Source: Candidatus Oxydemutatoraceae bacterium
GTDB taxonomy: Bacteria; Pseudomonadota; Gammaproteobacteria; Poriferisulfidales; Oxydemutatoraceae
Direction of reading: 5' to 3'
DNA length: 64,000 nucleotides
Assembly (NCBI GenBank): GCA_965218975.1
Contig: OZ244717.1
Coordinates: 1,504,001-1,568,000 of the forward strand
In this document: positions 3,950-54,881 of the stretch, one piece after another
How the letters are laid out: each line of letters opens with the position of its first letter
Position numbering within the stretch: position 1 is the stretch's first letter
Translations under genes and position numbers: made by a program
Notes under the pieces: generated by a model
Databases searched by the model: none
Told to the model about the DNA's origin: nothing
The model's input: the letters and a program-made list of their open reading frames with translations, nothing else

Positions 3950-3954
3950 ATGGC

Positions 3955-33483: not shown

Positions 33484-35838
33484 TTATACACAGTCCGGAT
33501 GATTTTCTTGAGTAATCTTATGGGTTTGCCAATAATGTTTTTGGACGGCACGGTGTGATGTAACTTGAATTTCATCATTTAATAAGGCATCGGTAGCCGA
33601 CCCTGCCAAAGAATCGGGCGGAAAATAAAGGCGGATGGCACCGCTTTCGGCAGTATTGTATACACTAACACAGTGATCGCGATATCTTTGCACCACCGAT
33701 GCGGCGGGGAAATCGAATCGGTTGCGAAAGCCGCTGGATACAATGGCAATTTTTGGTCTGACTGCTTTTATAAAAGATACTCCGGACGAAGTTTTGCTTC
33801 CATGATGGGGCACCGATACCGCATCAACATTTAATTGTATGCTATAACGCCTTAGCAATTGATTCTCCGCTGATTTTTCTATGTCGCCTGTTAATAGCAA
33901 TTGATGATCGTTATTGGATATTCGTAATACGCACGAAGCGTCATTTTCCGACAATCTTTCCGATAATAATTCCGAAGATGGGTGGAGAAAAGTAAAATAC
34001 ACGTCATCCCAAACCCACTGTATGCCGTCATGGCACCTTTCAAACTCGGAAAAAACATAATTTCGCTCACTGCGCCCGCCGATATACTTTTTTCTTACGT
34101 CGAATCGGCTAAGAATCACGTCGGCGCCCCCGGCATGGTCTTTATCGCTATGCGACAATACCAACGCATCCAAATGAGTAATATTGCTGCCGAGTAAAAA
34201 CGGCAATATAACTGCAGAGCCTAAATCGAAACCTGATGGATATTTAGCGCCCGCATCAAATAATAAAGTATGTGTGCGGGTGCGAATCACTACCGCAAGC
34301 CCTTGCCCGACATCTAAAAACACACTTTCAAAAGCGCCTTTAGGAATGGAAGGCGGCGGAATCAATGATAAAGTGCAAAGAAATAAAACACCGGCGACCC
34401 TATAATAAAAATTACACGTCGCAATAATCAATATCGCTCCAAGCATCGCACTGAAATAACACCACCACAACGGCTTATGGAACCATTGAAACAGCCGAAT
34501 ATTTTTTATGAATTCCGCTGCATACCAGAAACCATCAAGCAATAAATCAGCGGCCCACACCAAACTTGCTGCTATTGGTTCATTAATAATGGAAAATAAT
34601 GTCGCCAATAATACACATGGCAGTACCAAAAAACTTGCGTAAGGAACCGCAAACAAATTGGCAATCGGAGCCAGCAAAGCACCTTGGTTAAAGAACCATA
34701 AACTAAGCGGCAATAAAATGATCGGCAAGTACAAATGCAATCCTATCCATCGCACCGGTTTTATCGAAGTTTTTGTCGCTTGAATAAAAACGACGATGCC
34801 GCCGACTGCCGAGAATGAAAACCAAAACGACGCGGATAAAGTGCTGAAAGGGTCAAGACACAATACCACTAGCAAAGCCAATGATAACGAGTTGATAAGT
34901 GAGGTTTGCCGCACTACTATCCGAGCAAACAAAACACATCCGAGCATAATTAATGCTCGTTGCGTAGGCAATGAAAAACCTGCGAGCCAAGCATAAGTGA
35001 AAGCAAATAGGAATGCGACTCCTCCCGCCATTGACGGTGTGGCAATATAACAACGGGATAAAAAGTATTTTCGCCACAGATAGAAAACGCATTGGTAAAT
35101 TAGAACGAAAAATAATGCAATATGAAGACCGGAGATAGCAAACAAATGTCCGACTCCGGATGCTGTTAACAATTGCCACTGATGTCGAGTCATGTATCTA
35201 CGTTCGCCTAATGTCAATGCCAACACCGCGCCGATATTATCTGTGGCGCTTAACTGAGCAAACAGTTTGTCATAAACGTATTGGCGAAACTTTTGTGCAA
35301 GATTTGGCGCCGCATTGGGAACATACGACCAACTACGGATATAACCGGTCGCCCCGATACCATGAGCAAATAAAAACCGCTCGTAATCAAATGTATGCGG
35401 ATTGCTGTAGCCGTGCAAAGGTTTTAGCCGTACTCCGGCATGAATAGTTTCGCCTAGTTTCAACTGCGGGTCTTCACCATACAAACCTAAGCGCAATTTA
35501 TCCGGGACCGACAAACCACCTGCGGAAACTTCATGGTCACGAACGACTACCGCATCCAAACGAGTATAAAAATTTTGATAGCTCGGAATAGATACAATCC
35601 GTAAATTTAATTCGGCCTCTCCTCCGTCAAAACCTTGCATTCCATCTAATCGTATAAAAGCCGCATACCATACCCAACAAAAACCTAATACAAAGACACC
35701 AACAAAACGTGCAATCGAATAGCGAATAAATATGCCGGCAACCAAAGGAGTGATCGCCAACCAGCCGATGTTGGGCAATAGCGGCAGTTGTTGAAATAAT
35801 ACATTTCCAAGCAAAAAAGCGATCGCATGGGTAAACAT
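33484..35838 (-). CDS. comEC: DNA uptake protein ComEC/Rec2
   Basis: HLFAISGLH, FSLPTQRA, FLDVGQG, MBL motif SHSDKDHAGG, PHHGSKTSS. Confidence 0.95.
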   Translation of the reverse strand: MFTHAIAFLLGNVLFQQLPLLPNIGWLAITPLVAGIFIRYSIARFVGVFVLGFCWVWYAAFIRLDGMQGFDGGEAELNLRIVSIPSYQNFYTRLDAVVVRDHEVSAGGLSVPDKLRLGLYGEDPQLKLGETIHAGVRLKPLHGYSNPHTFDYERFLFAHGIGATGYIRSWSYVPNAAPNLAQKFRQYVYDKLFAQLSATDNIGAVLALTLGERRYMTRHQWQLLTASGVGHLFAISGLHIALFFVLIYQCVFYLWRKYFLSRCYIATPSMAGGVAFLFAFTYAWLAGFSLPTQRALIMLGCVLFARIVVRQTSLINSLSLALLVVLCLDPFSTLSASFWFSFSAVGGIVVFIQATKTSIKPVRWIGLHLYLPIILLPLSLWFFNQGALLAPIANLFAVPYASFLVLPCVLLATLFSIINEPIAASLVWAADLLLDGFWYAAEFIKNIRLFQWFHKPLWWCYFSAMLGAILIIATCNFYYRVAGVLFLCTLSLIPPPSIPKGAFESVFLDVGQGLAVVIRTRTHTLLFDAGAKYPSGFDLGSAVILPFLLGSNITHLDALVLSHSDKDHAGGADVILSRFDVRKKYIGGRSERNYVFSEFERCHDGIQWVWDDVYFTFLHPSSELLSERLSENDASCVLRISNNDHQLLLTGDIEKSAENQLLRRYSIQLNVDAVSVPHHGSKTSSGVSFIKAVRPKIAIVSSGFRNRFDFPAASVVQRYRDHCVSVYNTAESGAIRLYFPPDSLAGSATDALLNDEIQVTSHRAVQKHYWQTHKITQENHPDCV

Positions 35839-37394: not shown

Positions 37395-38204
37395 ATGATG
37401 AGAAAACCACAAATGAATCCGGATTTCATTCTAGAAAGATATATCCCAGATTTGGATGCTTGGCACCGGATTATTAAATCCGGTCTTTCTCCTCGTTCCC
37501 CCGGTGAGGCGGAAGCCATAAAACGTGAAATGCAATTCCTGAGAAAGTCCTTTTATGCTGAAATTCATCAGCTCGAAACATGGTACTGGGATGCAGAAAG
37601 AATTGAAGAAGCCATGTCTATTCCTATTGATAAACCTCAAGGGAAAGATATTGCACTACCACAAAATGTTGGGATTGGATTTCATTTGTTTAGAAAAACA
37701 GACAAGAAGGGAAAGGAAGTTGACGTGCTCTATGCAGATGTGAAAGACGGCAGCAGTTCGATTTTACCTATGGCAATAATTATTAGGACAGATAAAGTCC
37801 AAGCTTTTCACAACCTAGAAGATGGTTCCGTAGATTTGGCTCATGTTCCGAAAGGTGACCTATGGTTTATGCTCGCCGCCAGAATGACATGCTTTCTGAA
37901 CCAGAAACTCACCGATGTCAAAAAGGTCAAAGCATTGACTCGACAAGAGCGGAGACGCATCGGCATGGAATCACCTGAAAGTCAAACCGAAATCAATCTT
38001 GTGAGGTGGAGAAAGATAAGGTATGAATCTAATGGGACAGAGAAAATATTACGTGATAAGTGCTGGCCGGTTATGGGACATGTCCGTTGGCAATGGTATC
38101 CGAGCGATATGGTTCACAAACCTATTTGGATAGAGACACATATACGCGGTAATCCGAACGCACCATTGCATGTAAGAACTAGAATCAATTCGGTTGTCAA
38201 CTAA
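37395..38204 (+). CDS. Hypothetical protein, phage-like
   Basis: 269-aa ORF; RQERRR stretch and C-terminal VMGHVRWQWYPS...HKPIWIETHIRG motif, recalled from phage hypothetical proteins. Confidence 0.6.
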   Translation: MMRKPQMNPDFILERYIPDLDAWHRIIKSGLSPRSPGEAEAIKREMQFLRKSFYAEIHQLETWYWDAERIEEAMSIPIDKPQGKDIALPQNVGIGFHLFRKTDKKGKEVDVLYADVKDGSSSILPMAIIIRTDKVQAFHNLEDGSVDLAHVPKGDLWFMLAARMTCFLNQKLTDVKKVKALTRQERRRIGMESPESQTEINLVRWRKIRYESNGTEKILRDKCWPVMGHVRWQWYPSDMVHKPIWIETHIRGNPNAPLHVRTRINSVVN

Positions 38205-38473: not shown

Positions 38474-39637
38474 CTTTAGCCTGCGATGCATTCAAAGTCG
38501 GTTGCCGCACCTTGATTGGTGCGGCAAACCTTGAAGGAAAGCGGATACAACGCAGTGGCATTGGCGCCACACCGCCGCCGCCAAGCACACCGTCCGCCCG
38601 GTTTGGTGCAAGCAATCCGTTGTCTGCGCGAGCAATATCTGAACTTAGGCAAACAGCCGGTGCAGAAGTTGCTTGAGCTGTGGGGCGAACGCTACGGCCT
38701 GGCTACACCCAGCGTCTCGACTAGCAGGCGCATCATTGCCGCGGCCCCAGACAAGATGCGCCGTATCCCGCAGCGCCTTGATGCCCGCGGCAGACGCCGT
38801 CCGTACCGCTGGACCAACAGGTTACGTCGCCCGCGCCACCCATGCACTGCGTCGTTGGAATAGTTTGCTTGTGATACGGTGGAACGGGGGCGCGACGGTA
38901 TCCGCCGCTACGTGTTCATCTTCATGGCCCCGTGCTCGCGCGTTGCGGGTGTACAGGCTTCCGTTACCCGCAGCAGCCAGCGCAGCGCGAGAGGCGTCGG
39001 CGGATTGTCGGTGGATTTTGCCAGATTATCAGCACAGTGCCTGTCGTCCATGACGAGACTTGGTTCTGTCAACAAGCCCCAGCCCCGACATCCTTGTCGG
39101 GTCGTTCGCCGCTGAAAACCGTTCGGTTTTCCGGGCGCGTCTCACCCTATCGTCCATGACGAGACTTGGTTCTGTCAATAAGCGTCAGCCTCGACGTCCT
39201 TGTCGGGTCGTTCGCCGCTGAAAACCGATCGGTTTTCCGGGTGCGTCTTACCTTGCGGCTGTTGTGCGAACTGGTGCCGAGGCCGATTCGCTATAGCTTG
39301 TCCGACAACGGCTCGGGGTTTATGTCAGAGTTTATGCAGGGCTTCGAGACCGAGTTGAAACGGTGCCGGATCACCCACTGGTGGACCTATCCGAAGTCGC
39401 CAAAGATGAACAGTTGCTGCGAGCGTTTCAATCGCACCTTGCAGGAGTCATTCGCGGACTACCACGAGGATCTTCTGTTCGCCGACGTGGCCTGCTTTAA
39501 CCGGAAATTAGCGCAATGGCTGGTGTTTCACAACGCCCAACGCCTCCATTATTCACTGGCATTCACTGGGGCTACAATCCCCGATACAGCCGCTCCTGAC
39601 GCACCACCCGGAGTGCCAAATGTTATGGACCTATACA
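38474..39637 (+). mobile_element. Decayed IS481-family element (copy B), frameshifted, carrying two R1 repeats
   Basis: Fragments LREQYLNLGK, PSVST.RRIIAAAPDKMR, RRYVF, LSDNGSGF, YPKSPKMNSCCERFNRTLQE; right end ...GGACCTATACA at 39637; no left end found. Confidence 0.85.
39022..39252 (+). repeat. Multi-hairpin repeat R1, tandem copies 2 (39022-39147) and 3 (39150-39252)
   Basis: Direct repeat with hairpins TCGTCCATGACGA, CCCGACnTCCTTGTCGGG and GAAAACCGnTCGGTTTTC. Confidence 0.9.
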
Positions 39638-39881
39638 TTATCGTGATACAGTCTTTTGATAGTGGTGGGTCTGAAAATTCTCTATGGCGGTGCCTTTTTA
39701 TCAGGATTTATTTTTGCTTGACATGGCTTAAATAAAAATAGGTCTTTCCGGCTTTGAACTGGGCTTTCCCAAATACTTAAAATTAGTTCTTTTTGGCTAT
39801 TGCGCGAGGATAGTTTCCGTTCCGCCAAGTTTTCACTTCGGCTTTTAGTTTTTTTTAGGGAGGAGTTCGTGGTTTGATTTT

Positions 39882-40415
39882 TTATTTATTCAAACAGCAT
39901 TTTTTGTATTTTTTACCATTGCCGCAATAGCACATATCATTTCTACCTATATTTTTTATATCCTTATCGAACTCTTTTACTCCCGCTTCTCCATGTGAGT
40001 ATTCTCCCCAAGGCGGGCTTTTACCATATTGGCTTTTGTAATTTTGCCAAACGAAAAAAGGTAAAACATGAAGTTTAATAAAATCCGATGTAGATAGGGT
40101 GGCATCTCCAAACAATCCCAAACAACAACTCCCATCAGAATTAATATGATTATTAGGTATTTTTTTTATTTTGTTCCCTGTTTCATAAACTTTGTAATTT
40201 AACAAATCAATTTTGATTTCATAGACATCTTGGACAAAAGTTTTTTTATATTCTTTTCTAGCCTGTTCATCAGGGTTATGAATTAGTTTTTCTTCATCAT
40301 AGACAGCACAAACGTTTATTTCCCCTTTAATAAAAGGATTCTCAAAATATAAATTTGGAAATGTTTTTTCAACTTCTAACATTTCATTTTCTATACTCTT
40401 AATGCCATCTATCAC
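39882..40415 (-). CDS. CBASS-associated E2 (UBC-like) protein with C-terminal SEC-C motif
   Basis: HINSDGSCCLG resembles the E2 catalytic HxNxxGxxCL motif; PWGEYSHG; SEC-C GRNDMCYCGNGKKYKKCC. Start uncertain: GTG 40415 overlapping the cyclase end, or ATG 40382 or 40448. Confidence 0.7.
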   Translation of the reverse strand: MIDGIKSIENEMLEVEKTFPNLYFENPFIKGEINVCAVYDEEKLIHNPDEQARKEYKKTFVQDVYEIKIDLLNYKVYETGNKIKKIPNNHINSDGSCCLGLFGDATLSTSDFIKLHVLPFFVWQNYKSQYGKSPPWGEYSHGEAGVKEFDKDIKNIGRNDMCYCGNGKKYKKCCLNK

Positions 40416-41328
40416 AGTACGGTTTATTTGGTCTTGTAGTAAATGCACTGTTCTCTTTCAGCTTTCCAAACTCATCGCCAAAAACTTCTCTCCATTTTCT
40501 CACACTTTCATTATGATCTGTATTGTTAAACGCTTTATTAATTTTATCTGTGTAAAGTTTTATTTTATCTCTAAAGTTAGAATATTTATCTTGGTCCCAA
40601 TGTCTATTAAAGTCTTCATTATCTAATACGGGATTTTTAATTGTTGGCATTGCAGAATGAGTCTGTAAAAAGTCGTTTAAACGATTAAAAATTTCTTTGA
40701 GGGCAATAGGCAAATCGCTAAAATTTTCGATTTTACGAATTTGATTGCCTAAAAGAGTAGTTAATAAAATAGATTTACAACTAAAGTTAGTTTTTATATC
40801 TCTCATGTATTTAAATAGCTTAGTTACTTTTTTTAAGTATCCATGAGAGTCATTGTTTTTTTCTGTTAGCCATTTTTTATATTCTGTTCCATCTGTTTTT
40901 TCAAATTTATTTGTATTTTTGTTACAAATAAATTTTTGGTTATTCGCCTCTATACAAGGCACAATATCTAAATGGAAATCACCAGAATAATCTATTTCGA
41001 TACACCTAGATCTTCTTGAGACAATGGCTTTATAATTTCTATCATCTTTAAATAGGTTATAAATTTCATCTATGTAATCCTTAGGTTTAAAATCATCTTT
41101 GTATTTAATATAAATTATTATATCAGCATCAAAATCTTTATCTTTTGGGGGTTTAATAATAGTCTTCATCCCATAAGAACCTTGATTTTCTCTTTTTTGA
41201 TAATTATCTAACTTATCGTTAAGGTAATCACTAATAGTTTTAACTTTCTTGTCCAAAGTCTCTATCCTATTTTTATTGAGATTGACTTCATTTTCCAAAA
41301 ATTGATTGAAATACTTTGTATGACGCAT
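40399..41328 (-). CDS. CD-NTase (cGAS/DncV-like, SMODS) cyclic oligonucleotide synthase
   Basis: QGSYGMKTIIKP...DFDADII, third Asp in HLDIVP, KLFKYMRD, KSILLTTL, C-terminal WREVFGDEF; between patatin and E2 genes. Confidence 0.9.
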   Translation of the reverse strand: MRHTKYFNQFLENEVNLNKNRIETLDKKVKTISDYLNDKLDNYQKRENQGSYGMKTIIKPPKDKDFDADIIIYIKYKDDFKPKDYIDEIYNLFKDDRNYKAIVSRRSRCIEIDYSGDFHLDIVPCIEANNQKFICNKNTNKFEKTDGTEYKKWLTEKNNDSHGYLKKVTKLFKYMRDIKTNFSCKSILLTTLLGNQIRKIENFSDLPIALKEIFNRLNDFLQTHSAMPTIKNPVLDNEDFNRHWDQDKYSNFRDKIKLYTDKINKAFNNTDHNESVRKWREVFGDEFGKLKENSAFTTRPNKPYCDRWH

Positions 41329-41330
41329 TG

Positions 41331-42245
41331 TTAACCTCTCATCTTGTTTAAAAAATTTTCAATTCTACTTTTATTGTCTAAAAAACATCTATTCGCATAA
41401 GATTTCAGATTATCTAAATTACCAATATCGTCTATAGCATAATCTATATCAGAATTTACTCTAAGGTAATTTTCCTTCAAAATTAAATTTGATATATTGG
41501 TAGCGCCGACGGAAGACATGCTCAATAGATATTCTACTAATTTTGAAGAATTCCACCCTGTACAAAATCCCCAGCATTTCTTTTTTTTATCATAAGATAT
41601 TTTATTATTACCAGTTCCAATAGATAAAATAGAAATCTCATTTATATTTTTATTGAATTTGCTTACTGCTTCTGTAAATCCTAGAATAGAAGGATTATTA
41701 GCCCATAATCCCCCATCGCACAGAAAATAACTGTTATCCAGTCTTTGTGGGTCAAAATAAGTAGGGGCAGAACAAGAAGACAAAATAGCTTCGGATAGTT
41801 TTGTTTCTTTATCTCTAGTGTAATGTTCTATTTTAGACAAATAATTTGATTTATGAATATATACATTATTATTTAAAAGATCAGATGATACAATCATCAG
41901 CGGTTTTTCAATCTCTCCTAATTTTATATTCTCAAATTGTTTTTCTAAAACGTTTTTTAATCCTTCCTTTTTGTATTTACTTTGTAATACCCTTGAAGAA
42001 AATTTTCTTTTCTTAAATATCTCTTCCCCTTCCTTTTCGTATAATTCTGATATTCTGCCCATAGAAATATCCACTGCTACAGCACTAGATATTATTGCAC
42101 CTGTGCTTGTCCCTATTAATAAATCAAAAAACTTGTTTAAATCGATACTAAAATTTTCTTCTATTTTTTGTAAGATGATAGAAGTATAAAGTCCTCTTAT
42201 CCCACCACCATCTAAAGCCAGTATTTTAAATTTTTCATCTTTCAT
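41331..42245 (-). CDS. Patatin-like phospholipase, CBASS effector (CapV-like)
   Basis: LDGGGIRG, GTSTG, SAPTYF, DGGLWANNP; stop 2 nt before the CD-NTase start. Confidence 0.9.
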   Translation of the reverse strand: MKDEKFKILALDGGGIRGLYTSIILQKIEENFSIDLNKFFDLLIGTSTGAIISSAVAVDISMGRISELYEKEGEEIFKKRKFSSRVLQSKYKKEGLKNVLEKQFENIKLGEIEKPLMIVSSDLLNNNVYIHKSNYLSKIEHYTRDKETKLSEAILSSCSAPTYFDPQRLDNSYFLCDGGLWANNPSILGFTEAVSKFNKNINEISILSIGTGNNKISYDKKKKCWGFCTGWNSSKLVEYLLSMSSVGATNISNLILKENYLRVNSDIDYAIDDIGNLDNLKSYANRCFLDNKSRIENFLNKMRG

Positions 42246-42248
42246 AGC

Positions 42249-42450
42249 TTATCCCTCTACAACCACCACTTCTTGCCCCAGCATATCAATAATTTTAACC
42301 GCTACTTTGCCTTTGATTGCTACTTGATATTTCCCTTGTGCTAAATCCCTTTTCTTCTTGAGAACATCGCTATAGGCGATATTAAAGACTTTGCCGTTGT
42401 AATCATTGTCTATCAAAACACAATTGATTGTTGCTCTAAAATCTTTGTAT
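42249..42450 (-). pseudogene. C-terminal remnant of a type III Mod-like DNA methyltransferase
   Basis: CVLIDNDYNGKVFNI...VAVKIIDMLGQE matches C-terminal tails of Mod-type MTases; upstream frame switches to IS sequence near 42450. Confidence 0.6.
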
Positions 42451-42937
42451 CTCGGGAGCGAAAATGTAGCGGTGCACTCCGTGCTGATAACGCACGATCG
42501 TATCCAGGACGATGCAGTGCCCCGGGTTGCCCCCGGACACTGCACTCGGAAGTAACTTGGCTTGCGCACCCTGGAACAGCGCTTGAACGGTCGTTTTGTT
42601 TGTTTTTTGGCGTTCTCTTTTGGTATTCGGGCCGCTGCGGAATACAGCGCATCTTATAGCGTGTCTTATAACGGATCTTATCCGGCGCAGCCGCGATCAG
42701 ACGCGCAATCGCGCGGACACTTGGGCATGTTTCACCCTGCACCACCCTCATGCCGACAACGAACAGAAAGCGCCGCCCCGAATGTTACTGCCGAACGCTT
42801 TCCTGGGGGCCCTGCAAGAATCCTATTTTAGGGTGGCATCGTACAACCCGACGCCCCATCATTCACTGGGGCTACAATCCTCGATACAATCGCTCCTGAC
42901 TCACCACCCGGAGTGCCAAATGTTATGGACCTATACA
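42451..42937. mobile_element. Scrambled IS481-family remnant (copy C): minus-strand transposase piece, repeat R2, plus-strand right end
   Basis: Minus strand PSVRAIARLIAAAPDK...RKP...HRYIF; plus strand YN..PHHSLGLQS...HHPECQMLWTYT ending ACA at 42937. Confidence 0.75.
42753..42842 (+). repeat. Repeat R2, copy 1
   Basis: ACAGAAAGCGCCG..CCGAATGTTACTGCCGAACG...CAAGAATCC...TGGCATCGT also present at 44363-44449. Confidence 0.85.
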
Positions 42938-42942
42938 ACTCC

Positions 42943-42973
42943 TTGACAAAAAAACTGCTTTGCCTTATACGAT
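42943..42973 (+). promoter_or_regulatory. Putative sigma70 promoter of the TM-TIR operon
   Basis: Perfect TTGACA (42943-42948); -10 either TATACG (17-nt spacer) or TACGAT (19-nt spacer). Confidence 0.45.
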
Positions 42974-43007
42974 ACGAAAATTGAATCTGGCGTTTAGTAT
43001 AAAAATA

Positions 43008-43433
43008 ATGATGGACCAAGAAGAAAAAATAAAATATTTAGAATTTGTTCAAAACATTGTAACAAGAATGAATAATAACTCATTCCAAATTAAAAACTGG
43101 TGTGTTATTACTGTTTCGGCTATCTTTACAATTTCCATTTCTAAAGAAAATTTCTACATCTTACTTGTTGCATTATTGCCAATCATTTTATTTTGGTTTC
43201 TAGATGCTTATTACTTGACACAAGAAAGAAGATTTAGAGGGCTTTATGATCAAGCTATTAAAAAAGAAAGTAGTTTAGGAGCTTTTGAAATGAACACTTC
43301 GTCTTTTAGACTAGGGCAATATCGTTATTTTAAAGTTTTATCTTCAAAAACCATTTCTAGTTTATACATAACCATGATTATTGTAGTGTTAATTATGTTT
43401 TGTTTAATCCAATATAAAGGAGGCACATTATGA
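43008..43433 (+). CDS. Small multi-pass membrane protein, candidate effector paired with the TIR gene
   Basis: About three hydrophobic segments; motifs LEFVQNIVTRMNNNSFQIKNW and FWFLDAYYLTQERRFRGLY; stop overlaps the TIR start (ATGA); start ATG 43008 or 43011. Confidence 0.75.
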   Translation: MMDQEEKIKYLEFVQNIVTRMNNNSFQIKNWCVITVSAIFTISISKENFYILLVALLPIILFWFLDAYYLTQERRFRGLYDQAIKKESSLGAFEMNTSSFRLGQYRYFKVLSSKTISSLYITMIIVVLIMFCLIQYKGGTL

Positions 43434-43870
43434 GAAGAGTATTTTTTAGTTTTAAGTATAAAAAAGATGTTTCCAGGGCTATGGTTGTTAGAGAGAGTTG
43501 TGTGACGCAAGGTAAAGAAGCGGCAGGATTTATAGACAAAGCAAATTTTGAGAAAATAAAAAGGCAAGGTGATACAGCCATAAAAAGATGGATAGATGAT
43601 CAGATGGAGGGAACATCTGTAACAGTTGTTTTAGTGGGTCAAGAAACTTGTAACAGTCGTTGGGTTAAATATGAAATAAAGGAGAGCAAAGAAAAAGGGA
43701 ATGGTTTATTAGGTGTAGACATTAGTAAAATAAAAGATTTACAAGGCAATACTAGCGAAAGATGTGGACAAATCCCGGAAGGCTACTCATTTTATCTATG
43801 GAAAAATGATGACGGTTATAACAATTTAGGCGATTGGATAGAAGAAGCTGCGCGAAAAGCGGGAAGGTAA
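43430..43870 (+). CDS. ThsB-like TIR-domain protein (DUF1863/MTH538-like)
   Basis: RRVFFSF.Y, IKRWIDDQMEGTSVTVVLVG.ET, catalytic Glu in RWVKYEI, GNGLLG; RBS AGGAGG. Confidence 0.88.
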   Translation: MRRVFFSFKYKKDVSRAMVVRESCVTQGKEAAGFIDKANFEKIKRQGDTAIKRWIDDQMEGTSVTVVLVGQETCNSRWVKYEIKESKEKGNGLLGVDISKIKDLQGNTSERCGQIPEGYSFYLWKNDDGYNNLGDWIEEAARKAGR

Positions 43871-44029
43871 AAGGGGCAGGAAACAAAAAAGCCACCCCCC
43901 ATCATTCAACACAAAAGGAGGCGATTAAAGGGAACTACATACTTTAATCCGCAAAGCACGGGTTAGGGCTTCCGCTTTTCCAGCTTTCGTTGCTGCTTTA
44001 ATTCCTTGCCCGTTGGCCTGCGGTCTTCA

Positions 44030-44236
44030 TACTTTGCCCGGCTCATCTGGGAATTACTCATGATTGAGTAGTGGCTGGCCTACCCCAAGTGCCCAAAAAT
44101 GAACGCGCACATCGGGTGCTTCAACTGCACCGTCTGGCGTACGGTCCAAGAAGATTGTATTGATCATGGGAAGACCTGCTATTTACCGATACGCAAGCAT
44201 TCAATGACCGGTTGTGAAACCGTTTTGGCTTGGTAA
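44030..44236 (+). mobile_element. IS481-family integrase-core fragment (copy D; left limit approximate)
   Basis: Degenerate WLAYPKCPKMNAHIGCFN...VQE...EDLLFTDTQAFNDRL. Confidence 0.65.
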
Positions 44237-44449
44237 CAGATTATCAGCACAGTGCTTGTCATCCATGACGAGACTTGGTTCCGTCAAAGAGCGCCAGCCC
44301 CGACGTCCTTGTTGGGTCGTTCACCGCTGAAAACCGTTCAGTTTTCCGGGCGCGTCTCACCCGGCAACGGACAGAAAGCGCCGGTCCGAATGTTACTGCC
44401 GAACGTTTCCCTCAAAGCTCTTCAAGAATCCCATTCAGGATGGCATCGT
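44237..44449 (+). repeat. Contiguous R1+R2 unit (about 213 bp), the longest copy of the repeat element
   Basis: R1 (44237-44362) runs directly into R2 (44363-44449). Confidence 0.85.
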
Positions 44450-44525
44450 GCAGCGGCTTGAGCGATCCATCGCAGTCGGAAAACGCATCCGATATGTTTT
44501 CGGACACGTACAGGAGATACGGACT

Positions 44526-47500
44526 TTATCGTAACCCACCCAGCATAGCCCTGATATAACTATCCCTGTCTTTTTCCTGAAAAAGGATATTGCTTTTTTG
44601 CATTTCGCTTTTTTCTATTCGCCATAGTCTGCGCATCGTTGCGGACGGAGTGTTTGAAACAATAAATGACTGCAAACATACGTCCCGATTTTTGAGGCGT
44701 TGTTCGATTTCCTTGATGGTCTCGTAGAACCGGATCTTTGGATCGTCCCATCCGAGATTCCGGATTCCCTTGGGATCTATGAAGATAACCCGTTGTTGCT
44801 TATTCTCAAGCAACCACAAGATAAAGTCGGGGTAAAAGTTACCGGCTTCAAAAAAACCCACACCGCGGCCCCTGCTCAGGTTTCGTAACAGATAGAGTTC
44901 ACGGTCTTGAAAGAAGTTTGTATGATTGTCGTGGAACGCCTTTAGATCTTCGACGAATTGGTACTCGCCTTTGTTCAGCGGCGCAGGTTTGATCTCGACA
45001 ACGTTTTTATCCAGATAGAGCAGCGGTTGGTACAAATGTTCCCCGAACCATACGGCCTTCATGCCTTGGAATTCCCAACGCTTCAACTCACCCTTCTGGA
45101 TGATGGCTTTGAGGTCCTCGAGCTTGGCGACGATGTCTTCCCGCGACTTGTTGATCAGGATCCGGTAGTAGCCCTCGTCCGGCGAATCCTTCACACCGAG
45201 GAAATTCGGGTCGTCGTCTTCCAGGTAACGGTATTCAAGGTGAGGAAGCTCCCACTCGCGCTTGCGGAAGGTGTAGTAACGCTCGGTGTATTTCTTCAGT
45301 AGCGCAAGCACGATTTCTTCCCATAGGCGTATCTTCTCGTAAGAATCGCCGACCAACTCCTCCGCAGGGATTTGCAAGCGATACCAGCTCTGGTCTCCGA
45401 GCAGGGCCTCGACCCCCTGCCGTGCGAGATTCAGGTTGTACCAGCCGCGCTCGACCTTGAATCGCTCCAGATCGAAGCAAATACGGTCGAGATCGAGGAA
45501 GGCCACATGGCGGGGTGTCAGGTGGGTCTCGTTCGGCGCGGCATCGGCATCGCCGCCAACCAGACCGCCCGACTTCATCGCCTGAATCTTCGGATACCAG
45601 TTAATCACCACTTGATTTTGCCGAAGGTTGTGGTCATCCTGATTGTTCTCAGGGTCCGGTGGCATGAGGGTCGGGACGGGTGCGAGTTTACGAAATGCTT
45701 GACCGAACTCGGTGCTGACACCATTGATCGTCGTCTTGAGCCGGATCGTCTTGAGTCGAATCGTCTTGAGTTTCTGTTTTCCGAGGTTATTGATCACCGG
45801 CAGCACAAACTCAATGTGTCCATCGGGCAAACCTTCTTCGTTAAGAAAATCCCGAAACTGCGCCATGTAATTAGCATGAATGCCGAAGATGCCGAGTGTT
45901 TCGAGTACACCGATGTGTTTCGGCTGCCTGATACTTTCGGGAAGATCAATTTTACTGCTGCGTTTAAGGCTCAGACCGTAACCCTTGAGTCGCACGCCGC
46001 GTCCGAAGAGTTGGATGATCTGCGCGCCTTCCCCTTTGCCCACGTTCATCAGCCCCATTGTCGAGACGCGCCAGCTGCTCCAACCTTCGGTAAACTTCTT
46101 TGAGCCAATCAGCAGATGCACCGTTGATTCCGGCTTGTTGATCTCATGGAAAAGCGACCCCGAAAATTTGCGCTCGCCCGTAGCAAGACCTTTCTCATCA
46201 CACCGCCTTACCAGTTTGGTGTCGTCGCCCACGTTGATGACGCCAAAGGCATCGTTTTCGGCTCCCAGACGCAAGGCTATCTCGCCGGTTGCGCCTTGCA
46301 GGTTTTCAACATAGAGTCGACCGCCGCCCGGGGCGTTGAAGAGCGTCGCAAGCGTCTCATTGAAGACTTGCTCCGGAGAGAGGCCGCAGGTGTTGAGATA
46401 CGCGAAGCGCCCGCAGAACAAGTTCTTGCCCGTGGCGGTGACAAGGCCCTGATTGAGAACCCGGTCGATGCGCTGGATGCTGCCGACGTGGTCCGAGACG
46501 TAGCGCGCCAGGAACCTCAAGATCTCGACGATGTCCGAGGCATCCTGCGCGGCCAAGCCCTTGACGACCCGCCCGCCGACGAAGATCCACAGAGGATTCT
46601 CGATGTTGAACGGCCGGAAGGCGCCGCCTTGCTCGCGGTAGAGCCGTTGCTGTTGGAAGAACGAAAGCAAGGAGGCCACGAGGTACAATTCAAGGTGATC
46701 TCGTTGTGTCCCCTCGTCGAGATTGAGTATCTGGTAATCCTTGCCGAAACCGTCTTTATAAAAATAGCGATACGAGTAGTCGCACAGCGTGTTCTTTGCA
46801 TATTGTTCGGTAAGTCGGAGGTTACCCTTGACCGCTTGCCCAAAGGTCGCCGAGTACTCGAAGGAGAATCCCTTTTCGCACAGCGCATTGCGAAAGCGCA
46901 TCCAAGCGCCTCCTTTTCCTGCGCTCGCGCCGCGGTGCCCTTCATCCACGAGCACCAGATTGTTCCCCTCAAAGGCGTTGATGGCGATGGTCTTGTCGCC
47001 CATCTCGTCCTTAAGCTTGTGGATGTCGAGGATTTCTATCCTCTGCCCGCTAAACAACCCGCGCCCATCCTTGTTGAAGAGCTCCGCGTCGATGCCCGCC
47101 GCCTCAAACTCGCGCAGATGCTGCTGCGAAAGTCCTTCGTTGGGCGTAAGCAGGAGGATGCGGTTCAACTCGCGCCGCCGGCCGTGTTGGGTCAGAGCGT
47201 GCTGGTACTGTAGGATGTTGGCGTGCATCAGCAGCGTCTTACCGCTGCCGGTGGCCATCCAGAAGGCGAGCTTGTTTAGTTGCGGCCAAGCTTCAGCGGC
47301 TTCGTCTAAGGCGGCGATCTGGTCGGCCTCGGGCTTGTCCGCATTGTAGGTTGCCACTTGAGCGTTGATCTCCACCAGCAACGCCTTGGGATCACGGAAA
47401 TAGCGGTCCAGATAGATTTCGGTAAAGAGTAGAGCCAGATACTGAAAATACTTCCAAACGATTGGCTTCTCGCCGTGAGTAATTCGTCTTTCGTTCAGTC

Positions 47501-47762
47501 TTTGGGTGTGCCTGACGATGTTCTGATCGTATTCCAGCAGCAGTTCGGCGGGCAATTCTTTCAAATCGAAATGATGTTCCTTGAGCACAAGGTGGAAGCG
47601 ATGAATGTTGTTCTCGTCCAGTCCTTCCAGTTTCTCGTCGCGCAGATGTTCGGCCAGTTTTGCGAAATGTTGTACATTGAAAAGCGACAGCAGCCACCGG
47701 TTAAGTACCAGCTTATGAGCGAACGGTACTTGCGGCCGGTTCTTTGCGCGGCGTACCATCAC
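44526..47762 (-). CDS. res: Type III restriction-modification Res subunit
   Basis: [28 protein letters not shown]-terminal nuclease FYPDF...FIDPKG; overlaps the mod stop by 4 nt. Confidence 0.9.
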
Positions 47763-50700
47763 AGGTCCTCAATTTCAAACATCAGGCGATGGAAGTCTTC
47801 CTCGATAAGCCGCGTCTTCCACAAATCGTTGGGGGTTTTGAGGTTTTCGAGATTGTTGCTGCCGTTGACGTAAATGAGATCGAGCTCATTATCCTTTGCG
47901 AGGTAACCTCGCTTGGTGAACCATTCGTCAAGCACAAGATTGTCTTGTTCCGGGTTTCCGGTAAGCTTGCGCCAGATGATGAGCGTTCGACGACCGTCCG
48001 GCGTGGTTCCTGTAACCGTGCGAAACCAGTACGGGCCGTTCGCATCTTTCTTGAGGCGGCCTTTCATCCGAAGGCGAAGGCGTTTCTCGCTGTCGCGCCG
48101 GAACGTGGCGCTGAAAGCCTGCGGCGCGGCGATGTGCCGAACCGTTAAGCCGATCAGCCAATTGAACGTCTCCAGAAGATCAGCGTTGACCATGCGGCTC
48201 TCATCCGACCCCGGACGCTTGACTTTGAGCTTGTACGCCGTGGGGTCGGCAAAGGCTTGCACATTGAGCAACGACTGACTGCCGCGCGTCTCAACGTTGA
48301 GCATATAGCGGAGAATGTACTGTTCTCTAAGTCCTTCCGCACCTTGTGCCTCAGCAGAGGTAAGTAAATCGGCCTGTCTGTCGGTTCGGTGTGTCTCAAG
48401 GTTGTTGAGCGCGTCTTCGTAGGATTCAAGCCGGACGACCTTGACGATGCGTGGGCTGCGCTCGGCTTCCTCGGGTGTGGCGAGGCGCTTGGGTTTGCCG
48501 TCTTTCCATGCCGGCGTGAAAGTAACCTTTTTGATGCGTGGCAGCAGCACTGTGTCGAAGTAGTCGCCCATCTCGACGAGGATGAAGCGCATTGGCACTC
48601 CAGTCGTGCGAACTATCTCCAGGATACTCTGCGCTGTAGTGCCTGACCCTGCGAAGTAGTCGAGAACAGTAGAGCCTGGCGCGCTTGCAAACGACAGCAG
48701 CCTACGCAGAAGCTGCGGCGGCTTGGGATTCTCAAAAAAATCACCATTGCGACCGAACTGCGATTGCAGTGAATATGCACCAAGACGCCCATCAAGATCC
48801 AACACGCTTCGGAACGAATCCTTGTAGTCACTGAGGTATAGCTTGATCTGAACGATGCGGTTTTCGTCTGGACCGTAAATGAGACGTCCCTTGTCAATGA
48901 AGTCGTGTCTCATCGTGCCTTCTGGGAACCTGTACCCATTTGCGGGCAATCGCATGGGTTTCCCCGTACGTGGATGCAAAATCTCGTACTCGTGGCCTCC
49001 CGGGTGGGGGTTGTGGACACTTTGGGAGCCCGTATAGACGCCGTCGCTGTCGACAAACTTATACCGGTCCACCTCACCGAGAACTGCGGCGTTGTCTCTG
49101 ATAAAGTTTCTCAAGTTAGATTGGATTGCCCTCAGCGTAGCGCCCTGCTCCTTCAGGCGTTCATATTCCTGGAGCAACAGCTCTTTCGCATCCGCGAAAT
49201 CATTCTTCCAAACGGGTGCCGCTGTGCCGATGTCTCTGACGTGGCACTGCACGTATTCGTGTTCGATGGCGATGCGAGTCGGATTGTTGTCACGAGCATT
49301 CCGCCAGACGACGGTGCCGGCGTCGTTGGTGGCTCCGAACGTCTCGTCCAGAAGCCAGCTGAGTTGACGGAACTCGTTGCCATCGATTGAGGAAAGAAAG
49401 GCTGCATCCTGTCGCAGGAGGGACGCGGACGACAAAACTCGGTCCTGCATCATCGAGAGCCATGAGGCACTTTGGTAGCCGTCCTTGTACGGGAACGCGT
49501 CCTTGCGGGTGTTATACGGCGGGTCGATGTATATACACTTCACCTTCTCGCGATACTGTGCCTGCATCAGGTTTAGTGCCTGAAAATTCTCGCTATGAAA
49601 TAGAACGCCATCCGTCTGCTCATCTATATCACTCATCGCTTCAAGTAGGCGCGCAGTAAACCTTTCATCAAAATGCCGCGTGTCTACCACCAGGGTTGAA
49701 TGCGCTTTTAGGAACTCGGGTTTGAGTTTTTTGCCGTAACCGGGCGTAGCCAAATCGCCCTTAATCTCGTCTATGGCAAACAGCTGCACCCACTCCTTGC
49801 GCTGAGTTTGATTTGCAGCGATTTCAGCATAGAATTTTTCCGGGATACACCCCGTCCGGATACACCAAGAGGTGCCCACGACGAACTTCTTCTTCAGCCA
49901 CAGCTTTTTCTGGAAGTCTTCAAGCTGCGCGAGGAAGTCAATGATCTTGCCCGCAATTTTTCGGATAACCTTGACCGTCGAGAGATACTGCTCAACGCGA
50001 GGCGCGGATTCGTTCTCTATATCGTCGAGATGCATGACTTCGTTCTTAATGTAAAAATCCAACTCCCGACGGAGGAAGGGCCCGAGATCCTTGTGGATGA
50101 AGTAGTCAAAGGTGTTGCGTGCGGTGTAGCGGTTCAGATGCGCTTCCAGGCGGCTGTACTCGGCTTGCTTGCCGTTAGTCATAGTATGCGGCTTTTTTAG
50201 CTCTGCAATCCATTCCGCCAATGCCGCGTCGGTTATGGTCTTTATGCGCTTGACGGCGAGCGTGATCAAATATTTTTGAACAGGTGGTTTATTTTTTCCG
50301 TTACGTTCGTCTTCGGGCCAATCGCTAAGCGTCGCCGGGCGGTATTCAAAGCGGATGACGAGCTCCTTGCCTTGCTCACCGTCTTCCTCGGTTATAAAGT
50401 CACGGTCCGAGCTTCCCGGCGCTGCCGGAAGAAACACACGGTTGTTTTCTTCACGCGCTTTGACGTTGCCATGCTCGCCTTCGGCAACGTCCGCCAGCCG
50501 AAAGTGCACGCGCATAGGTTTCTTTTTGTCGTCAGGCCGCAGGCGAAATGCGTAATCGCACAGGTACTCGCTCGTTTTAATGTAGTACTGATCCTTGTTG
50601 GCCCAATGAAGCATGACTTCCTCGCCTTCATAGGGGACGGCATAAACGCCCGGCTTGTAAACGCGTTTTGCGAGAAAGTCGCCTTCGGAGTAGTAGCGGC

Positions 50701-51055
50701 GAAAGAAACCATACAGGCGATCGTATACTTCGCTCTCCAATGCGTTGATATCGACGGCATCGTCTCGGAGCCGGGCGCGTAGTTCTTTGACCTTGGGCGA
50801 GTCGTCCGGATTCATTCCGGCCGTCTTAATACCCGCGATCACCTCGGACAGTTCCTCCTCGATCCTTACTTTGTCGACGGTTCTGTACTGCCCAAAGGCT
50901 GTCTGCACCTGCGGCAGCAGGTCATCGTCGAGAAACTGTGATACTTCAGCACTCTTGGCGTGCATTATTCGGTAAAGACCGAAATCCAGATCGGGCCGGT
51001 CGAGCTGGAACAGCTCTTTCAGCAGTATTTTCAGCTTTTCGTACTTTTTGTTCAT
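47759..51055 (-). CDS. mod: Type III R-M Mod subunit (amino-methyltransferase, long form)
   Basis: [50 protein letters not shown]. Confidence 0.9.
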
Positions 51056-51067
51056 GCAGTCTCTTCT

Positions 51068-52855
51068 TTATCGCCGGCGTTTATGCGCAGGCAAGCGCTC
51101 GAGTATTCCTTTGACAACCGACTGAAGATCATCAAAGTGCTTAAAATGCTCTCGGGTTCCTTCTTTATGAATGTACTCGGCAAATTTTCTCTTGCCGTTC
51201 CTAAATGTGTTTTTACCAGAGTCTAAATATGGTCTTAGCGCATCCTCATCATACATGTTTTCAATACCCCTCGAGGCGATTGAGTTCTCACGTTTTGGAA
51301 ATGAAAACGCTGTTACATTTTGAGGGTTGCCTGCGTTGTCTTTAAAATTTTCGGCTGTCTCTTTGGCATCACAATCCCACACGATAAGAATATGCGAGTT
51401 TGTCTTTACCCTTGAAAGCAACTGACCGTAAACCTTTAGCTGGGAAGCACCCGTTATATCTCGAAGATTGTCAAGTATTGCCACTTCTTGCGGAAAATAC
51501 AGACTCGCCCACCTTTCCAGATGATGCGCATTATTGCCTTCAGTCAAAATTGTGATCGGAGCGGCATCAGATATTGCAATTTTTAGTCCTTTTTCAATGG
51601 TTGCGAGGCCCTCGGACAGTTCTTCTATTGCCTCGGACTTTGTTACACGACCGATCTTGAAATTGTTTTGGCTTCGGACAAGTCGAAAAATCTCATCTTC
51701 CTCACAAACAGCAACGGTCGTCACCGAATGAGTCGCCATGATCACCCGCATTCCGTCAAAACTTTTGAGGCCGGAAATCAAAGCGGAAATCATTGACGGA
51801 TGAAGCACGCAATCAACTTCATCAAGAAGCAAAAGCCTGGGTTGACAACACCCAATGCTTCTATTAAACGAAGTCAACAAAAGTGTCATCATAATTGTCT
51901 CCCCGGATGAAAGGGTTTCGGCAGAGTAGCTTTCGCCTGTTGCTCTATTTGTCAGCTTTGTGGCAAACGAATATGGGCCACGACGGAAAAAAGTGAGTTT
52001 GTCTTCTTCCGGATCAGAAAATTCAAAATTGAATAGCTCAGGATCACCGGAAGCTTCTCGCATTTGTTCTAGCTTCCTTCTTAAAACAATCCAGGGCGGT
52101 TGTGTCTCCTTTCGGTATCGAGCCATTAGCTGTTGAATACTCTCCTGACTTGTTTCTCCTTGTGTATGAGCCCAAGCGTGTTGTCCAACTTTATATCGCG
52201 TAAATATTTCATTTAGGCCATTAGCAATGGTTTCTCCGTCGTAACAATCGGCCCGCAGAATATCATCGCGGTTGATTTCGTGTGGGAACTTCCCGCTCAA
52301 TTGAATAGACAAAACGATCAGAGAAGCCGGGTCGTCTCTTGCAGAATTAGATTGCCGATTTTTTAGCGGCCGAATAACCCATTCATTTATTTGCTTAAAG
52401 TAAGTGGATAGCGCCTCGTTGCTGTGCTCTTGGGCATACTGGCTTGAGCCCCTGGGAATTCTAATCTCATTCTTTAGATTTTCCTCAAATTCGCGGCGCT
52501 CATCGGAGCCGTCTTTTAAGTCGAAATCTTTCAAAGTCTGCGCAAAAATATTCTTGGCGGATTCTACAAGCGGTAAACCACTACTTGGCGCAAGATATTT
52601 TTCTATTGCTCTCGCAGCAAAGGAAGGTCTCGCCCCGTCTACTTTGGGGGAGTCGTGTAATTTGAATGAATTAAGATTGTACAATTCAATTTCCGGATAG
52701 GTAATACCGGACACTGATATAAAACCTTTTTCTATTGCTTGAAGCAGCTGTGTTTTGCCAATGCCGTTGCGGCCAATCAGCAACGAGAAATCCGGTAAAT
52801 CAGCCCCGGCGAGGTTCTTTATAGAAAGATATTTGCGCTTGAATTCAAGCTGCAT
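51068..52855 (-). CDS. OLD-like ABC ATPase with C-terminal TOPRIM-like domain
   Basis: GRNGIGKT, LSSGE, LLLLDEVDCVLHP, ATHS, then ILTEG...VWDCD...GIENMY. Confidence 0.7.
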   Translation of the reverse strand: MQLEFKRKYLSIKNLAGADLPDFSLLIGRNGIGKTQLLQAIEKGFISVSGITYPEIELYNLNSFKLHDSPKVDGARPSFAARAIEKYLAPSSGLPLVESAKNIFAQTLKDFDLKDGSDERREFEENLKNEIRIPRGSSQYAQEHSNEALSTYFKQINEWVIRPLKNRQSNSARDDPASLIVLSIQLSGKFPHEINRDDILRADCYDGETIANGLNEIFTRYKVGQHAWAHTQGETSQESIQQLMARYRKETQPPWIVLRRKLEQMREASGDPELFNFEFSDPEEDKLTFFRRGPYSFATKLTNRATGESYSAETLSSGETIMMTLLLTSFNRSIGCCQPRLLLLDEVDCVLHPSMISALISGLKSFDGMRVIMATHSVTTVAVCEEDEIFRLVRSQNNFKIGRVTKSEAIEELSEGLATIEKGLKIAISDAAPITILTEGNNAHHLERWASLYFPQEVAILDNLRDITGASQLKVYGQLLSRVKTNSHILIVWDCDAKETAENFKDNAGNPQNVTAFSFPKRENSIASRGIENMYDEDALRPYLDSGKNTFRNGKRKFAEYIHKEGTREHFKHFDDLQSVVKGILERLPAHKRRR

Positions 52856-52942: not shown

Positions 52943-53635
52943 TCATTCTTGGCTTTCCGCGTACGCTTGATGAAGCTTTCCGCCTTTCAAATGATAGACG
53001 CGGTCAAAACATTGTGCGAGTTCTAAGTCGTGAGTGGCTGTCAGTAAAGTCGTTCCGTCTTTGCGGTTCAGCTCCAACAAAATATCAGTAACTTTTACGG
53101 CAGTTTTTGCGTCAAGATTTCCGGTCGGTTCATCAGCGAATACATACTGCGGTTTAGCGATAAGCGCACGGCAAATCGCGACACGTTGTTGTTCGCCACC
53201 GGATAATTCGTCGGGTTTATGCTTTAACCGCTTGCCTAAGCCTACAATTTCAAGCAGTTCAATCGCGCGGGTCTCAGTCTGCCTTTGCCGTTCGCCGGCA
53301 ATCCAAATCGGCATCATTACATTTTCCAATAAAGTGAACTCGGCAAGCAAATGATAGAATTGATAAATAAATCCGACTTCTTTGCCGCGCCATCGGCATC
53401 GTGCATCCTCATGCATATCGCTGATAAGCTGTTGATTCGCAATAATTGTACCGGAATCAGGTAAATCTAAACCGGCAAGCAAATGCAGTAGTGTGCTTTT
53501 CCCGCTTCCGGAAGCACCGACAATGGCAAGCGTCTCTCCTCGCTCAACATTGAGATGCAAATCTTTTAATACGCTGATGCTTAGTTCGTCTTTGCCGTAC
53601 GATTTAACAACATTGCGGCACTCTATATATGCCAT
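52943..53635 (-). CDS. lolD: Lipoprotein-releasing ABC ATPase
   Basis: GASGSGKSTLLH, GFIYQFYHLLAEF, LSGGEQQR, ADEPTGNLD. Confidence 0.93.
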   Translation of the reverse strand: MAYIECRNVVKSYGKDELSISVLKDLHLNVERGETLAIVGASGSGKSTLLHLLAGLDLPDSGTIIANQQLISDMHEDARCRWRGKEVGFIYQFYHLLAEFTLLENVMMPIWIAGERQRQTETRAIELLEIVGLGKRLKHKPDELSGGEQQRVAICRALIAKPQYVFADEPTGNLDAKTAVKVTDILLELNRKDGTTLLTATHDLELAQCFDRVYHLKGGKLHQAYAESQE

Positions 53636-53636
53636 T

Positions 53637-54881
53637 CTATTCGTGCCTTAACGCTTCGGAAGGACGAATATTAGCGGCGTGCAGCGATGGATATAATGTC
53701 GCCAATGCGGTTAAAAGAAATGCTAAAGTAGCGGTAACGACGACATCGCCAAACAACAATTGCGACGGCACTTCGGTAATCGGGTACACATCCTGCGATA
53801 GAAATTTATGTCCGGTAATTCGTTCAATTCCGGCGACGATATTTTCAATGTTCAATGCCAGCGCAATGCCGCCGATTATGCCAAAACCAACACCGCCGAA
53901 ACCAATCAAACACCCTTGCGTCACGAAAATTCTCACGATGCGTGATGCAGTCATTCCCATCGTCTTAAGCACAGCAATATCAGCTTGTTTTTCAACAACT
54001 AGCATGATTAAGCTTGATACAATATTAAATGCTGCGACCGCAATAATTAAAGTCATAATAATCAGTAACAGTAGTTTCTCCATCTCCAGTGCGCGAAAAA
54101 AATTCTGATGACGTTTCGTCCAATCGCCGACCCAATAATCCATCCCAAGATTTTTTTGCAATTCACGACTAATTTCAGGGGCTTGAAACAAGTCTCTATA
54201 ACGTAATTGCACACCGCTGACCGCCTCACCAAGTCGAGAAATCTTTTGCGCGGAATTGATATGAAGCAATGCGATATTGCTATCATATTGCGGCATCCCC
54301 AGTTCAAAAATACCGCTGACAACCATCCGCTTAATCCTTGGCACCACACCTGCCGGAGTTTGCAAGACCTGCGAACTTAGTAATGTTACCTTATCGCCGA
54401 CTTGAACGCCCAAGCTACGCGCCAATGAGCGACCCAGAATCATTTGCCACTGACCGGCGCGTAAATCGTTCAATGAACCTTTGATCATATGTTGATTAAT
54501 TTGTGAAACTTCGGTTTCCAATTCGGGCTGTACCCCCCGTAAATAGGCGCCGTGGACTTTGCCTTCATGGGTCAGCATCGCTTGCGATTCAACGTACGGC
54601 GCATAAGCAATAATTTCAGTCTGCGCGTCAAACGACGTCTGCAAGCTTTGCCAGTTTCGTAAGTTTCCATCCAGCGCCTTTACCGTTCCATGGGCAGTGA
54701 AATCAAGAATCTTTGTTTGAATCTCATGCTTAAAACCATTCATCACGGATAGCACGGTGATAATAACAGTCACCCCCAGAGCGATGCCGATCATTGAAAT
54801 TAAAGTGATAAACGAAATAAAGTGATTACGCTTTTTTGCGCGTATATAGCGTAAACCGATACTGTATTCAATCCATTGCAT
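53637..54881 (-). CDS. lolC: Lipoprotein-releasing permease (LolC/E family; one copy in this window)
   Basis: RYIRAKKRNHFISFI, VLSVMNGF, AVAAFNIVSSL, IAVLKTMG, PSEALRHE. Confidence 0.9.
   Translation of the reverse strand: MQWIEYSIGLRYIRAKKRNHFISFITLISMIGIALGVTVIITVLSVMNGFKHEIQTKILDFTAHGTVKALDGNLRNWQSLQTSFDAQTEIIAYAPYVESQAMLTHEGKVHGAYLRGVQPELETEVSQINQHMIKGSLNDLRAGQWQMILGRSLARSLGVQVGDKVTLLSSQVLQTPAGVVPRIKRMVVSGIFELGMPQYDSNIALLHINSAQKISRLGEAVSGVQLRYRDLFQAPEISRELQKNLGMDYWVGDWTKRHQNFFRALEMEKLLLLIIMTLIIAVAAFNIVSSLIMLVVEKQADIAVLKTMGMTASRIVRIFVTQGCLIGFGGVGFGIIGGIALALNIENIVAGIERITGHKFLSQDVYPITEVPSQLLFGDVVVTATLAFLLTALATLYPSLHAANIRPSEALRHE

Follow-up and report, generated by a model that had tools for sequence, protein, structure and literature searches.

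The closest described system to the locus analysed here is type V Thoeris, which consists of the TIR protein ThsB and of ThsF, a three-helix membrane effector labelled DUF2270 (Yirmiya et al., bioRxiv 10.64898/2025.12.03.692087). In the portions of this preprint available to us, where 29 Thoeris effector types are annotated, a total of 470 type V systems were reported, appearing in about 1.2% of genomes and being enriched in Bacteroidota, and their TIRs cluster with those of types I and IV. ThsF was modelled with AlphaFold3 as a heptameric ring channel with basic pockets between protomers. Moreover, the type V TIRs that were tested make 3′cADPR, whose addition was specifically toxic with the system of B. 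thuringiensis DAR 81934, where the Tad1 sponge also lowered defence. A second validated system comes from Bacillus sp. 1NLA3E, for which added 3′cADPR was not toxic, so that the signal may differ in some copies. PADLOC, for its part, holds PDC systems, which are predicted candidates offered for future testing (Payne et al., bioRxiv 10.1101/2024.01.29.577857). By a term search, the name 'M50' does not appear in the main text of that preprint, and a literature search found neither a paper using the name PDC-M50 nor a published link between PDC-M50 and type V Thoeris; the later papers retrieved dealt with Thoeris types VI and VII or with type V CRISPR.

Two genes are found on the forward strand of the window (the whole 64-kb stretch of DNA that was analysed). 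The first (43008-43433, +), with an ATG start, encodes a 141-aa three-helix membrane protein of the PDC-M50A family that is very probably ThsF, according to PADLOC, hydropathy, AlphaFold2 and homology to 1NLA3E. The second, thsB (43430-43870, +), encodes a TIR-domain protein of 146 aa with a catalytic Glu82 which, judging by its family, would act as sensor and signal synthase (Pfam, PADLOC and PDB matches). The stop of the effector gene overlaps the start of the TIR gene at ATGA (43430-43433), and a Shine-Dalgarno sequence, AGGAGG, is located at 43418-43423, 6 nt 5′ of that start, this arrangement (43418-43433, +) coupling thsB to the effector gene. A previous reading of this DNA, made from the sequence only, had described an ATGA-coupled two-gene unit, and the two frames lie exactly so. 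It had also described a strong ribosome-binding site, which is present for the TIR gene, while sequence inspection found none 5′ of the membrane-protein gene. Likewise, the perfect -35 it had pointed out is real (TTGACA, 42943-42948) and belongs to a possible promoter at 42943-42973 (+), but it has no good -10, the candidates being TATACG at 17 bp, without the final T, and TACGAT at 19 bp. Furthermore, this site was absent from a consensus promoter scan of 42000-45000, in which 10 sites were found vs. 5.6 expected, and thus the promoter is not demonstrated. The G+C content was 27% in the effector gene and 36% in the TIR gene, compared with 42% in the core genes at 1-35838. Since both open reading frames match curated models over their full length, the observation goes beyond chance; the two genes are real and both frames are intact.

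In particular, the curated models are those of PADLOC-DB 2.0.0, where the membrane protein matched PDC-M50A with an E-value of 1.8e-41 (residues 2-133 on positions 1-131 of the 134 in the model) and the TIR matched PDC-M50B with an E-value of 3.4e-48 (residues 1-143). Membership of the pair in the PDC-M50 family is therefore practically certain. The sequence-only reading had presented the pair as an undescribed system, which does not hold, as both genes are PDC-M50 and very probably correspond to the validated type V Thoeris; its own caveat that the pair might already be catalogued proved right. Thus, the discovery value of the locus is small, the pair being known as PDC-M50 and its validation as type V Thoeris very probably dating from December 2025. 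The modest addition made here is the tie between the name PDC-M50 and type V Thoeris, together with a list of conserved polar residues as a candidate signal pocket and the record of HIT-fused and TIR-fused forms of the effector.

The hydropathy profile of the membrane protein presented hydrophobic segments at residues 26-44 (weak, 1.37), 49-67 and 116-134, in agreement with the earlier description of a partner of about 141 aa with roughly three transmembrane segments, and both polar motifs quoted in that description were located in the protein. Its AlphaFold2 monomer was all-helical (pLDDT 89, pTM 0.80), with helices at 4-46, 49-85 and 114-138. No SIR2, SLOG, Macro, caspase or SLATT domain was matched in Pfam at E≤0.1, the first four of which had already been reported as lacking, and no NCBIfam match was obtained for the protein or for its plasmid relatives. 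Regarding how ThsF binds its signal and opens, no solved structure matched the effector: a family profile of 141 sequences gave 0 matches in the PDB by sequence at E≤1, Foldseek returned nothing at E≤0.001, and the wide structure search with VIA-align found generic helical bundles only (best Z of 8.6). The nearest Atlas neighbours were 30 unnamed clusters at about 0.96, none with a family name, and the prediction of a homo-tetramer scored 0.12 against a mark of 0.42, which was counted neither for nor against. Moreover, a set of polar residues was highly conserved among 116 alignment rows that were not chosen by pattern, yet were ranked by the profile of a pattern-based alignment: R20 (100%), S25, K29, D66 and E73 (99% each), R77 (96%), Q15 (93%) and N24 (92%). 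R74 is also among the conserved basic residues of the family, and these conserved polar residues border membrane helices 1 and 2 on one and the same side. The invariance of FWFLDAYY in the pattern-based alignment was discarded as an artefact, since FWFLDAYY had itself been the search pattern. By a hydropathy rule, three hydrophobic segments were present in 131 of 141 family members; segment counting was rejected as a mark separating the PDC-M50A family from DUF2270, given that the same rule yields three in 89 of 120 true DUF2270 proteins.

The second protein was assigned to PF08937 (ThsB_TIR) with an E-value of 3.2e-25 in Pfam and to ThsB in PADLOC with 4.4e-58. The closest solved TIRs in the PDB were those of the B. 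cereus type I ThsB, 9B7D and 6LHY (E 1.1e-26), whose Glu85 aligns with Glu82 of the window protein; the substitution E85Q in B. cereus ThsB abolishes defence (10.1101/2021.01.06.425286, PMC7272460, as far as consulted). This catalytic residue, contained in the motif WVKYEI that had been put forward as retaining it, was kept in all 37 TIR relatives compared. Type I Thoeris of B. cereus MSX-D12, composed of a SIR2-SLOG ThsA and ThsB, therefore provides the closest solved TIR with an identical catalytic Glu, and its signal, 3′cADPR, is also the one reported for type V. However, the window effector is a membrane protein instead of an NADase, neither a ThsA gene nor a remnant of it is present in the window, and the TIR has 146 aa vs. 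about 192 aa in B. cereus MSX-D12. Two departures from its relatives were seen at residues 22-24 (43493-43501): Glu22 stands in place of the Asn present in 34 of 37 relatives, and Cys24 is shared by none of the 37 (Trp in 17, Gly in 17). Furthermore, the TIR was 73-80% identical to those of seven related loci (L003, L007, L011, L015, L018, L023 and L026), while its effector was 40-45% identical to the effectors of the same loci, which are 62-90% identical among themselves. In the window pair the TIR is hence better conserved than the effector, the reverse of other pairs, in which the effector is better conserved. Such a divergent effector beside a conserved TIR could be due either to fast drift or to an effector swap.

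The link to type V Thoeris was provided by a search with four Bacillaceae homologues, in which a protein named from Bacillus sp. 1NLA3E (P0494) appeared among the 120 matches listed. This protein was 34% identical to the window membrane protein over 126 aa (E 3e-27), matched PDC-M50A with an E-value of 1.1e-44 and presented three hydrophobic segments. No protein named DAR 81934 was among the 120 matches listed, and no B. thuringiensis DAR 81934 plasmid was among the best 40 rows of the plasmid search. As in type V Thoeris, the window combines a ThsB TIR with a small three-helix membrane effector, of weak DUF2270 likeness, without ThsA; it differs in an effector only 34% identical to the 1NLA3E protein and in a TIR with N22E and Cys24. 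The window pair is very likely type V Thoeris, where the identity with the ThsF set of Yirmiya et al. is inferred by homology. Taken together with the mode of action proposed below, type V identity was considered the best explanation of the pair, with a probability of roughly 0.85.

The DUF2270 label attached to ThsF was compared with the window family, and here an alternative comes in, namely that the pair belongs to PDC-M50 while having, in place of ThsF, another predicted Thoeris membrane effector, closer to 8xMP than to DUF2270 and possibly responding to another signal. The match of DUF2270 (PF10028) to the window membrane protein was weak, reaching 18 bits vs. a cut-off of 25, with two other families scoring alike, and P0494 itself had no DUF2270 match at E≤0.1, both of which speak for this alternative. 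Among 70 relatives, 9 matched DUF2270 at E≤0.05, fewer than DUF3278 (13). Profile comparison of the family with DUF2270 by hhalign gave probabilities of 51-67%, compared with 0.3% for a reversed control, although one local shuffle out of 40 scored as high as 68%. DUF2270 proteins also occurred at the weak end of the plasmid search with the effector (E 0.4). On the side of 8xMP (PF24838), weak full-length matches to two family members were found (E 0.012 and 0.028), and among Atlas neighbours with a Pfam name it came closest (0.86; with a TM of 0.69 for the model of the 1NLA3E protein), while nothing relevant to 8xMP was present among the literature matches listed. Canonical DUF2270 and 8xMP thus resemble the window family weakly in sequence, profile and predicted fold over the first two helices. 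Nevertheless, DUF2270 proteins differ from the family in having about 225 aa, no PDC-M50A match and no annotated TIR neighbour in any of seven plasmid loci examined (0/7), so that the TIR-linked 'DUF2270' of the preprint is probably a remote relative such as the PDC-M50A family. Moreover, some proteins carry both the DUF2270 and the 8xMP annotation, so that the two look like one superfamily, and a homologue in 1NLA3E would have to be a coincidence for a system occurring in about 1% of genomes. An effector other than ThsF was accordingly rated improbable. A separate reading was rated slightly lower still, in which the PDC-M50A family would be another ring-forming Thoeris effector resembling DUF2270/8xMP, and the window copy, whose TIR motif is altered and whose effector is divergent, would signal by a molecule other than 3′cADPR.

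The pairing with a TIR was then followed across the family, which is large and very widespread (5,977 representatives of PDC-M50A at 50% identity, E≤0.001). Scanning genomes yielded 87 relatives, and 80 loci were retained; these are not independent, as six are from H. pylori. According to phmmer and Pfam, a TIR gene was adjacent in 57 of the 80 loci (32 downstream only, 13 upstream only and 12 on both sides); PADLOC added an adjacent ThsB in two loci (L028 and L052) and a weaker TIR-TPR match in another (L039), raising the number to 60. In 8 more of the 80 loci, a TIR-like gene lay at a distance of two genes or on the opposite strand, while 12 had no TIR at all, 3 of them ending at a contig edge within 450 bp. 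Among plasmids, 142 records matched, and 8 of the 9 loci examined had an annotated TIR neighbour. Bacteroidota taxa were named in 16 of the 80 record titles, a hand count taken with no background frequency. ThsA was searched with Pfam on 78 immediate neighbours and with PADLOC on 72 out of 91 additional neighbours on the same strand, as well as on 21 other proteins, which resulted in a canonical ThsA in one of the 80 loci (L034) and a SLOG protein in another (L041), the Macro protein of a third (L037) being DarG. In the window itself, no SIR2, SLOG, Macro or caspase domain was matched by Pfam among the 52 open reading frames scanned, nor was any remnant found by tblastn with ThsA, SIR2, SLOG and Macro proteins at E≤0.05.

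These counts bear on whether the pair could be what remains of a type I system after loss of its ThsA. The sequence-only reading had taken the pair for a Thoeris-like system free of ThsA, and had named a pairing that is not conserved, or homologous loci that always include a canonical ThsA, as the outcomes that would speak against it; with a TIR adjacent in 60 of 80 loci and ThsA in 1 of 80, the pairing is conserved, canonical ThsA is not a constant member, and the ThsA-free character was confirmed in the window too. A decayed type I system was therefore rejected, as no ThsA-type remnant was detected in the window by tblastn and ThsA is rare beside the family, and it was given a very low likelihood.

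The mode of action proposed for the pair is largely that of type V Thoeris. First, ThsB would sense a phage component, as suggested by its family. Second, using Glu82, it would produce an isomer of cyclic ADP-ribose from NAD+, most probably 3′cADPR; by analogy with the tested type V TIRs, 3′cADPR is a reasonably likely signal for the window copy, the product being deduced from relatives. Third, the signal would bind basic pockets between the protomers of a membrane-protein ring, in line with the ring and pockets predicted by AlphaFold3 in the preprint, and such a pocket would probably be lined by R20, K29, R74, R77, Q15, N24, S25, D66 and E73 on the cytoplasmic side. Finally, the ring would breach the membrane, and the infected cell would stop growing or die, the pore being a prediction and the toxicity coming from one type V system. 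The earlier proposal had made the membrane protein the effector, activated either by a TIR-derived signal or by direct contact; of this, the effector role stands, with the signal version favoured by the published type V data, while contact is disfavoured.

The same evidence weighs on another possibility, in which the TIR itself would be a toxic NADase, or would switch on the membrane protein through physical contact, a diffusible signal being involved in neither case. Some unverified TIR pairs may indeed work so, and the 1NLA3E variant gave no response when 3′cADPR was added (Yirmiya et al., in the part available). However, one and the same effector family is found with TIRs of several unlike classes, placed up- or downstream and often two or three per locus, and near-identical effectors occur beside divergent TIRs (93% and 95% identity between effectors vs. 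56% and 62%, respectively, between their TIRs), which fits a shared small-molecule interface. Besides, both 3′cADPR and Tad1 act on the B. thuringiensis system according to the available part of the same preprint. For type V Thoeris, the published data thus favour a diffusible TIR signal, 3′cADPR, over direct contact, and a signal-free mechanism would be highly unlikely.

A different matter is whether this particular copy still works, since open frames that are not expressed or not active would be compatible with type V identity. The pair belongs to a defence island measuring some 17 kb, which is bounded by a competence gene (33484-35838) on one side and by an ABC ATPase with a MacB/FtsX-type permease (52943-54881) on the other; from gene order, we take these genes to be comEC and lolD/lolE. 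The window contains four or more decayed pieces of a single IS (3499-3950, about 38500-39637, 42753-42938 and 44072-44452), with one end sequence common to three of them (the 42938 side, 39637 and about 3949) and an rve_3 integrase fragment at 39166-39735 (Pfam). The remnant at 42753-42938, delimited by repeats and self-BLAST, ends 5 bp 5′ of the -35 hexamer, and that at 44072-44452, recognized by self-BLAST and by tblastx to the other remnants, lies downstream of thsB. The IS may be IS481-like; the remnant had no match in the plasmid records. As the sequence-only reading had noted, the unit is intact between these decayed pieces. Its position between IS remnants, the poor -10, the first gene devoid of a ribosome-binding site, the TIR departures of the N22E and W24C type, and the long branch of the effector (ranking 7th in length among 86 tips) all favour an inactive relic. 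Against this, both frames are whole, Glu82 is kept, and the 5 of 32 conserved columns missed by the effector are within the family range, at least as many being missed by 35 of 140 relatives. Inactivity was hence judged unlikely, though with an appreciable chance, and the window copy is probably still active.

Other defence genes of the island belong to separate systems. A CBASS operon at 39882-42245 (-) comprises a patatin effector, a CD-NTase and an E2-like protein with a SEC-C motif at its end (Pfam, PADLOC and NCBIfam); E1 and JAB genes were not seen among its members. On the other side of the pair, at 44526-52855 (-), type III restriction-modification genes are found, Res matching PADLOC REase_III with an E-value of 5.8e-219 and Mod matching MTase_III with 3.2e-204. 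Before them comes an ABC/AAA ATPase gene, identified by ATPase matches. This ATPase, of 595 aa (51068-52855, -), matched many defence ATPase models weakly. Moreover, an open reading frame of 269 aa with no Pfam match is located inside the island at 37395-38204 (+).

Regarding the remaining Thoeris types, types II (Macro-TM) and VII (SLATT) also have a TIR signal read by a membrane-breaching effector, as proposed here. They differ from the window pair in their signals, His-ADPR for type II and canonical cADPR for type VII, and in their domains, since the window effector matches neither Macro nor SLATT. Neither of the two was among the 21 Pfam families matched by the 70 relatives, and three helices take up the 141 aa of the window effector in its model, where the type II Macro domain is absent. 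As for the caspase-like effector of type IV, the Thoeris type treated in PMC13069673 (in the part available), no peptidase match was found in the window effector or in the other open reading frames of the island. Furthermore, three accessions of family loci did not appear in the accession file of the E. coli two-gene systems TIR-I to TIR-VIII (PMC11350192).

Additional arrangements were observed within the family. One locus (L034) combines the effector with several TIRs and a canonical ThsA, and another (L041) combines the effector with a TIR and a SLOG protein; both resemble the multi-effector Thoeris islands described by Yirmiya et al., as far as the accessible text goes. In six H. pylori loci (L073, L075, L076, L077, L079 and L080), the effector family is present, apparently shortened in some strains, a ThsB-like gene is found two genes upstream in five of the six, and a gene of 350-390 aa without family match is located in between in some. 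Three records labelled as Vibrio phages (PQ189363.1, PQ189372.1 and PQ189378.1; 14.4 kb) contain a partial effector homologue with 61% coverage and 38% identity.

Finally, fused forms of the effector were detected. A HIT hydrolase domain is fused N-terminally to the effector, right after a ThsB TIR, in the Gordonia terrae plasmid CP049837.1 (L086:2551-3573), and the same fusion, again after a ThsB TIR, is present in the Mycolicibacterium vanbaalenii plasmid NZ_CP126903.1 (L087:2599-3567). The HIT part of these fusions matches PADLOC ThsC, which was proposed as a signal off-switch (PMC8565338, in the part consulted). Such a fusion may be a self-limiting effector, or it may be the type XI 'hydrolase' effector from an Actinobacteria scaffold that is mentioned in the available part of Yirmiya et al. 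In a Dietzia plasmid, a TIR was found beside a HIT protein. In one sequence of 375 aa (P0223), an N-terminal TIR_2 and a C-terminal PDC-M50A are joined in one chain, representing a single-gene form.
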